From assembly GCF_054482525.1 (NCBI RefSeq), contig NZ_CM137006.1: 64,000 nucleotides of DNA; one strand, given 5' to 3'. Below, in pieces: positions 47,321 through 51,420 of this stretch; position 1 is the stretch's first letter, and every line of letters begins with the position of its first letter. Position numbers and translations under genes: made by a program. A model generated the notes under the pieces. That model ran no database searches, had not been told where the DNA came from, and saw nothing but the letters and a program-made list of their open reading frames with translations.

Positions 47321-48391
47321 ATGGCAGGACTGAAATTACAGGCAGTAACCAAAAGCTGGGATGGCAAAACCCAGGTCATTAAACCGCTGACCCTTGATGT
47401 GGCGGATGGCGAATTTATCGTGATGGTCGGGCCGTCTGGCTGCGGGAAATCGACGTTATTGCGAATGGTGGCCGGACTGGAGCGGGTAACGACGGGCGAT
47501 ATCTGGATCGACCGCAAGCGTGTCACCGAAATGGAGCCGAAAGATCGCGGGATTGCGATGGTGTTTCAGAACTACGCGCTTTATCCGCATATGAGCGTCG
47601 AAGAAAACATGGCGTGGGGGCTGAAAATTCGCGGCATGGGCAAGCAGCAAATTGCCGAGCGCGTTAAAGAAGCGGCGCGCATTCTGGAGCTGGACGGCCT
47701 GCTTAAGCGCCGCCCGCGTGAGCTATCTGGCGGTCAGCGTCAGCGTGTGGCGATGGGGCGTGCGATTGTGCGTGAGCCGGCAGTGTTCCTGTTTGATGAG
47801 CCGCTCTCTAACCTCGATGCCAAGCTGCGCGTACAGATGCGTCTTGAACTGCAACAGCTGCACCGTCGCCTGAAAACGACTTCACTCTACGTTACTCACG
47901 ATCAGGTTGAGGCGATGACGCTCGCCCAGCGAGTAATGGTGATGAACGGCGGCGTTGCCGAACAGATTGGCACGCCAGTTGAAGTCTACGAAAAGCCCGC
48001 CAGCCTGTTTGTGGCGAGTTTTATTGGCAGTCCGGCGATGAATCTGCTGACAGGCCGCGTGAATAATGAAGGCACGCATTTTGAACTGGACGGCGGTATC
48101 GTGCTACCGCTAAACGGTGGCTACCGTCAGTATGCCGGGCGTAAAATGACTCTCGGCATTCGCCCGGAACATATTGCGCTAAGCTCGCAGGCAGAAGGCG
48201 GCGTACCGCTGGTGATGGACACGCTGGAGATCCTCGGCGCTGATAATCTGGCGCACGGACGCTGGGGCGAACAGAAGCTGGTGGTGCGACTGGCGCATCA
48301 GGAGCGCCCGACGGCAGGCAGCACGCTGTGGCTGCATCTGCCGGAAAATCAGCTGCATCTTTTTGATGGTGAAACAGGACAACGAGTATGA
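47321..48391 (+). CDS. ugpC: Glycerol-3-phosphate ABC ATPase UgpC
   Basis: ORF track 47282..48391; likely start [21 protein letters not shown] at 47321 (356 aa); Walker [10 protein letters not shown]. Confidence 0.9.
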
Positions 48392-49131
48392 GTAACTGGC
48401 CTTATCCCCGCATCGTCGCCCATCGTGGCGGCGGTAAACTGGCCCCGGAAAACACCCTGGCGGCAATCGACGTGGGGGCAAAATACGGTCATAAGATGAT
48501 CGAATTTGACGCGAAGTTATCGAAAGATGGCGAGATCTTCCTGCTCCATGACGACAATCTCGAACGTACCAGCAACGGCTGGGGCGTCGCGGGTGAACTG
48601 AACTGGCAGGATTTACTGCGCGTGGATGCGGGCAGTTGGTACAGCAAAGCGTTTAAAGGTGAGCCGCTGCCGTTGCTTTCGCAGGTGGCGGAACGCTGTC
48701 GTGAACACGGGATGATGGCGAATATCGAAATCAAGCCCACCACTGGCACCGGGCCATTAACGGGCAAAATGGTGGCGCTGGCGGCACGCGAACTGTGGGC
48801 CGATATGACGCCGCCGCTGCTGTCATCGTTTGAGATTGATGCTTTAGAAGCTGCACAACAGGCTGCACCGGAACTGCCGCGCGGTTTGTTGTTGGATGAG
48901 TGGCGCGACGACTGGCGAGAACTGACCGCGCGACTGGGCTGCGTCTCTATTCATCTCAATCATAAGTTGCTTGATAAAGCGCGAGTGATGCAGTTGAAAG
49001 ACGCCGGATTACGGATTCTGGTTTATACCGTCAATAAACCCCAGCGCGCGGCAGAGTTGCTGCGCTGGGGCGTGGATTGCATCTGCACCGATGCGATTGA
49101 CGTGATTGGTCCGAACTTTACGGCCCAATAG
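48388..49131 (+). CDS. ugpQ: Glycerophosphodiester phosphodiesterase UgpQ
   Basis: 247 aa ORF with the GDPD-family N-terminus (IVAHRGGG...ENTLAA). Confidence 0.9.
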
Positions 49132-49558
49132 TTTTCAACGGAATGTCAGGCTGCGGCGTGCTGGGCTGATTCAGCATGTCGCCGTTTCTCCTCTCCGGCA
49201 GCATATGCTGCTGATTCAACGAACTATCCGGATTACGGTTGCTGTTTAACATCCCGCCGTTGGTGTTGGGCAGCATTTGCTGCCGGGCGGGATTTCGCTC
49301 CCCCGGCTGCGACTGCAACACCCGCTGGGAGTTGTTGTTTATCTGGTTTTCTAAATGCTGCTGTTGCAGCTGCGTTTGCGTTTTCAGTTGCTGGTTCAGC
49401 ATCCCTTTTTGCTGGATTTGCTGCGTCTGCATTTGAGTCTGCATCCGCTGCTGGCTGGGGATCTGATATCCCGGCTGGTTGGGGTTGTTCAGAGTATTAA
49501 TGGGCTGTGCAAAGCCGACAAACGGCAGGAGTGCCGTAAGAATCAGAAGTCGTTTCAT
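49118..49558 (-). CDS. yhhA: Gln-rich secreted protein YhhA (DUF2756)
   Basis: 146 aa ORF with signal peptide [19 protein letters not shown] and a long Q/N-rich low-complexity region; convergent with ugpQ, 14 nt 3' overlap. Confidence 0.8.
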
Positions 49559-49677
49559 CGCGTATCCTCCTCTGAAGATATCCTTTAAGTTTACTCGCTT
49601 CCCGGCAAAACGATGATTAATTCAGAGTTATATACCAGGCTTAGCTGGGGTTGCCCCTTAATCTCTGGAGAATAACG

Positions 49678-51420
49678 ATGATAAAACCGACGTTTTTACG
49701 CCGGGTGGCCATTGCTGCTCTGCTCTCAGGAAGTTGTTTTAGCGCCGCCGCCGCGCCTCCTCCGCCACCTGTTTCTTATGGCGTGGAGGAAGATGTCTTC
49801 CATCCGGTACGCGCGAAACAGGGGATGGTGGCGTCTGTAGATGCTACTGCCACTCAGGTGGGGGTGGATATCCTCAAGGAGGGCGGGAATGCCGTTGATG
49901 CCGCCGTGGCTGTGGGCTACGCGCTGGCGGTAACGCATCCGCAGGCAGGGAATCTGGGCGGTGGTGGTTTTATGCTGATCCGCTCGAAAAATGGCAATAC
50001 CACCGCTATCGATTTCCGCGAAATGGCACCCGCCAAAGCGACCCGCGATATGTTCCTCGATGACCAGGGCAACCCGGACAGCAAAAAATCACTCACTTCG
50101 CATCTGGCCTCCGGTACGCCAGGTACGGTCGCAGGTTTCTCGCAGGCGCTGGAGAAGTACGGCACCATGCCGTTAAATAAAGTGGTGCAGCCGGCGTTTA
50201 AACTGGCACGCGATGGTTTTATCGTTAATGACGCGCTGGCTGACGATCTCAAAACCTACGGTAGCGAAGTGTTGCCGAATCACGAAAACAGCAAGGCTAT
50301 CTTCTGGAAAGAGGGCGCGCCGCTGAAAAAGGGCGACAAGCTGGTGCAGGCGAACCTGGCAAAGAGCCTGGAGATGATTGCCGAAAACGGCCCGGACGAA
50401 TTCTACAAAGGCACAATAGCGGAGCAGATCGCTCAGGAGATGCAGAAAAACGGTGGCTTGATCACTAAAGAAGATTTAGCGGCGTATAAAGCGGTCGAAC
50501 GTACACCGATTAGCGGCGAATATCGCGGGTATCAGGTTTACTCGATGCCACCGCCATCTTCCGGTGGGATTCATATCGTGCAGATCCTCAATATCCTGGA
50601 AAACTTCGATATGCAGAAATACGGCTTTGGCAGCGCCGATGCGATGCAAATCATGGCAGAAGCGGAGAAATACGCCTACGCCGACCGCTCGGAATATCTT
50701 GGCGATCCGGATTTTGTGAAAGTCCCGTGGCAGGCGCTGACCAATAAAGCCTATGCCAAATCTATTGCCGATCAAATCGATATCAATAAAGCGAAGCCAT
50801 CCAGCGAAATTCGCCCCGGCAAGCTTGCGCCTTATGAGAGTAATCAAACTACCCATTACTCAGTGGTGGATAAAGACGGCAACGCGGTAGCGGTGACCTA
50901 TACGCTGAACACCACCTTCGGTACGGGCATTGTCGCGGGTGATAGCGGTATTCTGCTTAATAACCAAATGGATGATTTCTCCGCCAAACCTGGCGTACCG
51001 AACGTTTACGGGCTGGTGGGCGGTGACGCCAACGCGGTCGGGCCGAATAAACGCCCGCTGTCGTCGATGTCCCCAACCATTGTGGTGAAAGACGGTAAAA
51101 CCTGGCTGGTTACCGGTAGCCCTGGCGGGAGCCGGATTATCACCACCGTGCTGCAAATGGTAGTGAATAGTATCGATTATGGCATGAACGTCGCCGAAGC
51201 GACCAATGCGCCGCGTTTCCACCATCAGTGGTTGCCGGACGAGCTGCGTGTCGAAAAAGGGTTTAGCCCGGATACGATCAAGCTGCTGGAAGCAAAAGGT
51301 CAGAAAGTGGCGCTGAAAGAGGCGATGGGCAGTACACAAAGCATTATGGTTGGGCCTGACGGTGAGCTGTACGGTGCATCTGACCCGCGCTCGGTAGATG
51401 ATTTAACGGCGGGGTATTAA
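49678..51420 (+). CDS. ggt: Gamma-glutamyltranspeptidase
   Basis: ORF track 49651..51420; likely start MIKPTFLRRVAIAALLSGSCFSAAAA at 49678 (580 aa); catalytic Thr region present (...NQTTHYSVVDKDGNAVAVTYTLNTTFGTG...). Confidence 0.9.
   Translation: MIKPTFLRRVAIAALLSGSCFSAAAAPPPPPVSYGVEEDVFHPVRAKQGMVASVDATATQVGVDILKEGGNAVDAAVAVGYALAVTHPQAGNLGGGGFMLIRSKNGNTTAIDFREMAPAKATRDMFLDDQGNPDSKKSLTSHLASGTPGTVAGFSQALEKYGTMPLNKVVQPAFKLARDGFIVNDALADDLKTYGSEVLPNHENSKAIFWKEGAPLKKGDKLVQANLAKSLEMIAENGPDEFYKGTIAEQIAQEMQKNGGLITKEDLAAYKAVERTPISGEYRGYQVYSMPPPSSGGIHIVQILNILENFDMQKYGFGSADAMQIMAEAEKYAYADRSEYLGDPDFVKVPWQALTNKAYAKSIADQIDINKAKPSSEIRPGKLAPYESNQTTHYSVVDKDGNAVAVTYTLNTTFGTGIVAGDSGILLNNQMDDFSAKPGVPNVYGLVGGDANAVGPNKRPLSSMSPTIVVKDGKTWLVTGSPGGSRIITTVLQMVVNSIDYGMNVAEATNAPRFHHQWLPDELRVEKGFSPDTIKLLEAKGQKVALKEAMGSTQSIMVGPDGELYGASDPRSVDDLTAGY

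Follow-up and report, generated by a model that had tools for sequence, protein, structure and literature searches.

The Gln/Asn-rich gene yhhA of Escherichia coli and its convergent overlap with ugpQ

In the 64,000-nt stretch of E. coli DNA analyzed here (the window), a low-complexity ORF rich in glutamine and asparagine codons runs tail to tail into the neighboring gene on the opposite strand, and the two coding sequences share their last nucleotides. This arrangement raises two questions: whether such an ORF encodes a protein that matters to the cell, and whether the shared 3' ends form a regulatory device. The initial annotation named the ORF yhhA, described its product as a secreted protein of unassigned function, and proposed that the overlap could allow antisense interference. 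The ORF lies on the minus strand (49118..49558) and comprises 146 codons plus a stop. Its partner, on the plus strand (48388..49131), is ugpQ, which encodes a glycerophosphodiester phosphodiesterase and is the final gene of the ugpBAECQ operon. The overlap itself, TTACGGCCCAATAG, occupies 49118..49131, which bears out the 14 nt originally reported.

The segment from 48900 to 49700 is 100% identical to E. coli strain PCN033 and is matched in 5424 of the 5426 complete E. coli genomes, in every case on the chromosome. The RefSeq annotation of PCN033 places yhhA and ugpQ at matching coordinates, with ugpA, ugpE, ugpC and ugpQ sharing a strand, yhhA running opposite to them and ggt coming next. In the window, yhhA likewise adjoins ggt and ugpQ and thus holds the orthologous position, as in PCN033 and in all 80 related loci. 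The product matches Pfam DUF2756 (PF10956) over its full length (202.9 bits against a cut-off of 21, E = 1.1e-60), and does the same with the equivalog model PRK10350 of NCBIfam (NF007675; 265 bits against a cut-off of 136, E = 1.5e-79). A strong Shine-Dalgarno sequence, GAGGAGGA (49565..49572, minus strand), lies 6 nt 5' of the ATG. Given both family matches and this ribosome binding site, the ORF is not a chance one. The two family models and the match to annotated PCN033 identify it as yhhA, a gene long since catalogued in E. coli, and its overlap is an ordinary one. The gene, its membership of DUF2756, its regulation by stress and the overlap of its transcript with that of ugpQ are all on record.

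The DUF2756 family is tiny. A profile search (E up to 0.001) of 1.84 billion representative proteins returned 80 clusters, and GTDB genomes yielded 80 loci, every one of them from Enterobacteriaceae and spread over many genera; yhhA is restricted to this family and close relatives. Between genera, residues 17–78 are near-invariant while the codons vary freely, with mixtures of CAG and CAA at conserved glutamines and up to six leucine codons at an invariant leucine. Whole-gene dN/dS is ∼0.05–0.13 in 8 of 10 comparisons and 0.24–0.28 against Klebsiella and Leclercia. Because amino acids are conserved while synonymous sites vary, and because both RNA and protein have been detected in published work, we conclude that yhhA is a real protein-coding gene. 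Its low-complexity sequence is under strong constraint at the protein level.

This constraint is not uniform along the protein. The C-terminal tail differs far more from one lineage to another, and Klebsiella and Raoultella, with proteins of only 92–108 aa, lack it. Distant relatives of 80–117 aa share the overall plan, in which a signal peptide is followed in turn by QPGYNPSQQRMQ, a Q-rich segment and the motif QRVLxSQPG. Within E. coli, natural in-frame indels are rare and fall mainly in the segment of residues 34–82, where isolates tolerate deletions of 10–50 residues. We also considered a synonymous hot spot in codons 20–82, where the Nei-Gojobori dS is ∼1.0 as compared to 0.1–0.25 in the tail. 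It was rejected, because Q/N codons, being two-fold, are over-counted by this method and because a sliding comparison was unremarkable: in 60-nt windows, divergence at codons 20–82 is 10–15%, inside the local range of 0–22%.

The N-terminus carries a signal peptide, as had been claimed at the outset, and it is of the Sec type. Residues 1–17 (49508..49558, minus strand) begin with MKR, continue with a hydrophobic core and end in GFA. We judged the signal peptide by eye and placed its cleavage site, before Q18, by the –3/–1 rule; the positive n-region, the hydrophobic core and the small residues at –1 and –3 all point to cleavage between GFA and QP, and A17-Q18-P19 is invariant throughout the family alignment. 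YhhA contains no cysteine and hence no lipobox, so the mature protein is expected to be periplasmic and soluble. These features bear on a preprint that presents YhhA as a validated type III secreted effector of EPEC (bioRxiv 10.1101/364117), a role in which it would mimic the S/TQ-cluster substrates of host ATM-family kinases. An effector of this kind should be confined to T3SS-bearing strains and should lack a cleavable Sec signal. YhhA has a classical cleavable one, and its gene belongs to the core genome, being present in nearly every complete E. coli genome, K-12 included, and in many environmental genera. With 22% Gln, moreover, a protein should contain S/TQ motifs by chance. These data make a role as an effector extremely unlikely.

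Assuming cleavage after residue 17, mature YhhA has 129 residues, of which 47 (36%) are Gln or Asn, as the description of the protein as Gln/Asn-rich implied. It contains 10% Pro and 5.4% Gly, lacks Cys, Trp and Phe, has 10 Lys plus Arg against 6 Asp plus Glu, and is very hydrophilic (GRAVY –1.40). Both Q-rich strings quoted in the initial annotation are present, although to call them long repeats was an overstatement: Tandem Repeats Finder reports no array in yhhA, and the only direct repeats are short (13–17 nt) and imperfect. At the protein level, short motifs do recur, among them MQTQ (twice) and x-M-L-(N/P)-x (five times, at residues 53, 95, 103, 119 and 128, the last four in the tail). 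The region is therefore best described as low-complexity sequence with recurring short motifs, and is not a repeat array.

Three parts can be distinguished in the mature protein. The first is a conserved N-terminal motif starting with QP(I/L) (residues 18–34; 49457..49507, minus strand), which can also be recognized in distant relatives. It is followed by a proline-free, Q-rich segment (residues 34–82; 49313..49459, minus strand), which an AlphaFold2 model built on an alignment of 25 sequences shows as a single long helix (pLDDT 74–88); 20 Gln fall within residues 35–84. The remainder (residues 83–146; 49121..49312, minus strand) is a predicted disordered tail rich in N, Q, P and G, with IPLKTIGP at its C-terminus; outside the helix pLDDT is below 50, as it is for all residues beyond 86. 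One caveat is that the helix may reflect a habit of AlphaFold2 of drawing Gln-rich tracts as helical. We also considered a coiled coil or an amphipathic helix and rejected both, as the hydrophobic moment was not above that of shuffled sequences, being equalled by 974 of 2000 shuffles at 100 degrees and by 1481 of 2000 at 102.9 degrees; the helix is thus neither amphipathic nor built on heptads. A search of the PDB with the family profile gave no match at E up to 1, and a lax Pfam scan (E up to 10) returned only noise besides DUF2756 (ThsA_Macro, E = 0.088; CemA, E = 0.57).

Composition of this sort invites the idea that YhhA self-assembles in the periplasm, as a prion-like protein, a functional amyloid or a condensate, forming a gel or fiber under stress in the manner of curli subunits. 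Michelitsch and Weissman are said to have defined a Q/N-rich domain, in 2000, as one with at least 30 Q/N per 80 residues; the best 80-residue stretch of YhhA, residues 21–100, has 36. In keeping with assembly, the 50-residue core is free of proline and carries few charges, the predicted helix is strongly conserved on all faces, and the protein shares Sec export and RpoS control with curli. However, YhhA matches neither the curlin repeat nor any other Pfam family, AlphaFold2 draws a helix rather than a β-solenoid, prolines are frequent in the mature protein and flank the core, and E. coli isolates dispense with 10–50 residues of that core. We regard self-assembly as improbable on balance, and its specific form, in which the conserved polar Gln helix would drive a condensate, gel or fiber during RpoS-controlled stress, as a distinctly improbable one. 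If it were true, YhhA would be an uncommon bacterial example of an extracytoplasmic prion-like domain, and the rare in-frame indels of E. coli would tune its assembly.

When is the protein made? A divergent spacer of 119 nt (49559..49677) separates yhhA from ggt, and within it lies a –10-like element, TGGTATATAAC (49627–49637, minus strand), which was found by eye and marks a putative promoter position. A scan of 48700–49800 with the σ70 consensus gave no promoter match. The promoter is probably of the RpoS type; in K-12, a SELEX peak of RpoS holoenzyme maps to the ggt/yhhA spacer (PMC5493296). Published data sets indicate that yhhA responds broadly to stress. Among the genes that many different stresses upregulate, it stands out as a hub (PMC9501238), its RNA rises after an acid shift (PMC2270276, PMC7824302), and a list of genes that respond to a LolCDE inhibitor by induction includes it, beside Rcs and RpoS genes, at values of 5.59 and 9.91 (PMC5105897). 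The protein, too, has been seen. YhhA is named in a top-15 abundance figure for envelope/periplasm-leak extracts of stationary-phase STEC, accompanied by HdeB, Ivy, ZraP, YmgD, PsiF and SodC (PMC9731836), and it has been quantified in the Salmonella proteome (PMC4265081). The initial annotation had named a complete lack of expression, under any condition, as the observation that would count against it; with stress-induced RNA, and protein in STEC and Salmonella proteomes, this is not what is found. Both yhhA and ugpQ are induced by starvation.

Given its fixed position, YhhA could conceivably work with its neighbors, for example by assisting the periplasmic γ-glutamyltransferase Ggt or serving as its substrate, or as part of the phosphate/carbon starvation program of the ugp operon. 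The order ggt, yhhA, ugpQ is kept in all 80 loci, with ggt divergent from yhhA and ugpQ convergent to it, and the association extends to distant members of the family. In addition, ggt and yhhA share the divergent spacer and each encodes a periplasmic product, and Gln makes up 22% of YhhA. Against this, gene order is generally stable in Enterobacteriaceae, which makes its conservation weak evidence, and Ggt acts on γ-glutamyl compounds, not on the Gln side chains of proteins. A search for co-expression or interaction data came back empty. We consider a partnership with the neighbors very improbable.

We then turn to the 3' ends. The two genes are neighbors on opposite strands with their 3' ends facing each other, and the state of the junction could be scored in the 79 loci in which both stop codons can be placed. 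The coding sequences overlap by 4–20 nt in 61 of these and are separated by a gap of 7–284 nt in the other 18. An overlap of 4 nt is seen in 36 loci, followed by overlaps of 14 nt (8 loci), 17 nt (7), 20 nt (6), 11 nt (2), 7 nt (1) and 9 nt (1). The widest gaps involve disrupted genes, and those between intact pairs reach 96 nt at most. The 14-nt state of the window is found in Escherichia and in a few species of Buttiauxella, Cedecea and Enterobacter. In UgpQ, the overlap sits in a short and variable C-terminal extension, beyond the conserved IGP(D/N)F. In distant members of the family, too, a GDPD gene faces the yhhA relative tail to tail, across a gap of 1 nt in two loci (L082 and L084) and 35 nt in a third (L085), and in one distant member another gene lies between the two. 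The variety of overlap states, together with the variable extension of UgpQ, indicates that tail-to-tail packing is conserved while the overlap drifts with the position of the stop codons.

Since there is no intergenic DNA between yhhA and ugpQ, the termination signals of each must lie within its partner, and we found a candidate on each strand. On the plus strand, a terminator-like hairpin of 12–13 bp (49153–49182) is followed by CGUUUCUCCU (feature 49153..49192) and may terminate the ugp operon. It begins 22 nt past the ugpQ stop, within yhhA codons ∼123–136, and has a predicted folding energy of –27.4 kcal/mol (z = –1.9). Its three G-U pairs become A-C mismatches in RNA of the yhhA sense, as would be expected of a terminator that serves the ugp operon. 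The hairpin is retained in Escherichia and Citrobacter, with a better U tract in the latter.

On the minus strand, the hairpin (G)CCCCAGCGC...GCGCUGGGG(U), followed by UUAUU (49033..49071), is a candidate terminator for yhhA. It lies 47–85 nt past the yhhA stop, within ugpQ codons 216–228, and has a predicted folding energy of ∼–21.6 kcal/mol (z = –2.3). The 8 bp of its core pair in at least 90% of the 79 sequences. The stem is largely fixed by the codons for PQR...RWG, and covariation is weak. Two observations are of use here. First, 66 of 73 loci encode Pro218 of UgpQ with CCC, a rare codon whose share in the remainder of ugpQ is 12%, as compared to 64% for CCG, and the third base of this codon pairs in the stem. 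Second, in nine loci a change in the stem leaves a G-U pair that can form only in RNA of the yhhA sense. The codon bias and the nine G-U changes suggest some selection on the stem. The U tract is present only where residue 217 of UgpQ is Lys.

As terminators, both hairpins are putative, with modest z-scores and weak U tracts. Term-seq data from three conditions contain no 3' end labelled ugpQ and none at either hairpin (PMC7815308, supplements). The entry for yhhA in the same data is an ORF-internal 3' end only, ∼51 nt into the ORF (PMC7815308). An Rfam search of both strands of 48300–49900 identified no RNA family. If both hairpins do terminate transcription, the two mRNAs should overlap by ∼160 nt, which is consistent with a 2025 survey of RNA-seq data with ExcludonFinder that counts this pair among the convergent excludons of E. 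coli MG1655, 165 in all (PMC12288877). In that survey, overlapping yhhA-ugpQ transcripts were present in at least 50% of 58 MG1655 samples (PMC12288877).

Does the overlap act as a switch? In a functional excludon, the Pho-regulated ugp operon and the RpoS-dependent yhhA would interfere, each going down when the other is on, either because polymerases collide or because RNase III cuts the duplex formed by the 3' ends. The overlap of convergent coding sequences, which leaves no room for a terminator between the genes, the RNA duplex predicted from the candidate terminators, the place of the pair among the MG1655 excludons (PMC12288877) and the tail-to-tail layout shared by the family and its distant relatives all fit such a mechanism. 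Several observations do not. The length of the overlap is not conserved and a gap takes its place in 18 of 79 loci, the excludon listing derives from RNA-seq coverage alone (PMC12288877), and Term-seq or Rho-termination features in the overlap have not been reported (PMC7815308). Moreover, ugpB and yhhA increase together in one published acid-shift time course, and both are starvation-induced, a poor fit to mutual exclusion. The interference originally envisaged is thus physically plausible, and the overlapping transcripts it calls for are published, but the idea that the overlap is maintained for this purpose fares less well, as the overlap varies in length, falls within a variable extension of UgpQ and joins two transcription units that rise together after an acid shift. 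We consider a dedicated excludon unlikely; most likely, the overlap is incidental and not a dedicated switch.

The reading we favor, and to which we would give somewhat better than even chances, is that yhhA is a real, expressed gene for a periplasmic stress protein with a role as protectant or binder, and that its overlap with ugpQ is an incidental product of compaction. YhhA would be exported by Sec and its signal peptide cut after residue 17. The mature protein would be basic and very hydrophilic, and would consist of the conserved N-terminal motif, a polar, Gln-rich helix of ∼50 residues and a disordered tail bearing ML[N/P] motifs. Transcription would start in the ggt-yhhA spacer, under the response to RpoS and envelope stress, and YhhA would accumulate in stationary phase. 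Judging from its composition and co-regulation, it may serve in the periplasm as a disordered protectant or binder when cells meet starvation, acid or envelope stress. Periplasmic stress protection is our best guess as to its role. The overlap with ugpQ would have arisen by tail-to-tail compaction of the genome, and the two mRNAs, overlapping at their 3' ends, may allow some mutual interference.

No element of a new kind is found at this locus. The contributions of this analysis are the demonstration of protein-level constraint despite low complexity, the very limited spread of the family and its link with the junction of ggt and ugpQ, and the spectrum of overlap states, of which 14 nt is one in a drifting tail-to-tail junction. 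To these can be added the candidate terminators, each apparently written into the codons of the partner gene, and the rare in-frame length variants of yhhA in E. coli. Such observations offer concrete and cheap handles on the function of the protein and on the excludon idea.

How does YhhA compare with known systems? Among extracytoplasmic assemblies, CsgA of curli is, like YhhA, exported and linked to RpoS. YhhA differs in being predicted helical, and a search with the Curlin_rpt HMM gave no match, even at E up to 10. With Q/N-rich prion-like domains it shares a Q/N density above the census threshold of 30 per 80 residues. Hydrophilins are characterized by a mean hydrophilicity above 1 and a Gly content above 6%. 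YhhA resembles these and LEA-like proteins in its extreme hydrophilicity, predicted disorder and induction by stress, and its hydrophilicity is in the required range; its Gly content, 5.4%, is just below 6%, which places it outside the class. It is also exported rather than cytoplasmic, and Q/N-rich rather than charged or Gly-rich.

The convergent excludons are alike in layout, being convergent neighbors with no intergenic DNA, and overlapping transcripts have been reported for this pair in MG1655. An excludon draws its regulatory meaning from antagonistic expression and dependence on RNase III, whereas yhhA-ugpQ is likened to the class by layout and transcript overlap, and the length of its overlap drifts between species. 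A further group comprises Spy, CpxP, ZraP, HdeB, YmgD, YbgS and PsiF, which, like YhhA, are small, Sec-exported and induced by stress or in stationary phase, and which co-occur with it in envelope extracts and stress lists. Searches revealed no sequence relationship of YhhA to these proteins (an HMM for the LTXXQ family of CpxP/Spy/ZraP chaperones gave no match at E up to 10), and its Q/N-rich, largely disordered make-up is unusual among them. Finally, YhhA of K-12 (b3448) comes from this very gene. Over its first 61 nt, as given in the Term-seq table, the ORF of K-12 is identical to the window, and the full-length HMM matches and the neighbors agree, with no difference of substance; the PCN033 allele is 100% identical to that of the window.

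In-frame duplications and deletions give the YhhA variants annotated as E. coli (proteins P0001-P0035, P0092 and P0107) lengths of between 96 and 163 aa. The duplications span 10–17 aa (17 aa in one example) and the deletions 10–50 aa. These changes lie mainly in the Q-rich segment (window 49313-49459, yhhA codons ∼34–82) and are flanked by short Gln-codon microhomologies, and each length variant is rare, being found in 1–7 contigs. Three further E. coli-like products of 103–116 aa (P0080, P0096 and P0116) match the window protein exactly up to residue ∼86–91 and continue in another frame beyond that point; one cluster among them comprises 25 member sequences. These products represent either frameshift alleles or assembly errors. 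Much longer forms of YhhA are seen in some other lineages, including Franconibacter (181 aa, locus L018), Kosakonia (172 aa in L059 and 164 aa in L063) and Salmonella (167 aa, P0083). In the Salmonella protein, a block of 29 residues (SQQRMQ...QTQAR) is duplicated internally.

Antisense to yhhA lie two Leu/Cys-rich ORFs, 49239-49436 (+) and 49355-49588 (+), of 65 and 77 aa, respectively. Neither is taken as evidence for a gene: the CAG and CAA codons of yhhA read CTG and TTG on the opposite strand, and hence these ORFs are a by-product of codon composition.

For MG1655, published Term-seq data (PMC7815308, supplementary files 1 and 3) place an ORF-internal, Rho-independent RNA 3' end in yhhA at 3586994 (+), and the curated table of 3' ends lists it twice. 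In the window, this end falls at ∼49507 (−), roughly 51 nt from the beginning of the ORF and within the region coding for the signal peptide, and it is immediately preceded by the small hairpins ACGGCAcuccUGCCGU and GCCGuuuguCGGC. Premature termination could account for the RNA end, as could processing that leaves a 5' fragment.

Within ugpQ, Pro218 (window 49039-49041) is specified by the rare codon CCC in 66 of the 73 Enterobacteriaceae loci, whereas CCG accounts for 64% of Pro codons elsewhere in the gene. In the candidate yhhA terminator (49033-49071, −), a hairpin antisense to ugpQ, the base at the third position of this codon is paired with the codon for Trp227. Apart from Pro218, the conserved Pro columns of ugpQ avoid CCG only at codons 5 and 7, close to the ugpC-ugpQ junction. 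At this junction, the ugpQ start overlaps the ugpC stop by 4 nt (ATGA, window 48388-48391), a layout typical of translationally coupled genes in operons. Also within ugpQ, between yhhA and ugpC, is a binding peak of the sigma-28 (FliA) holoenzyme, seen by genomic SELEX at K-12 coordinate 3585866 (PMC5493296).

Distant DUF2756 members of 88–99 aa, from genomes and metagenomes, are likewise convergent to a GDPD (ugpQ-like) gene. Such genes occur in L082 (3501-3800), where the DUF2756 gene additionally adjoins ggt, in L084 (1461-1760), in L085 (168-449) and in L086 (592-858), where an Asp/Glu racemase gene lies between the DUF2756 gene and the GDPD gene.
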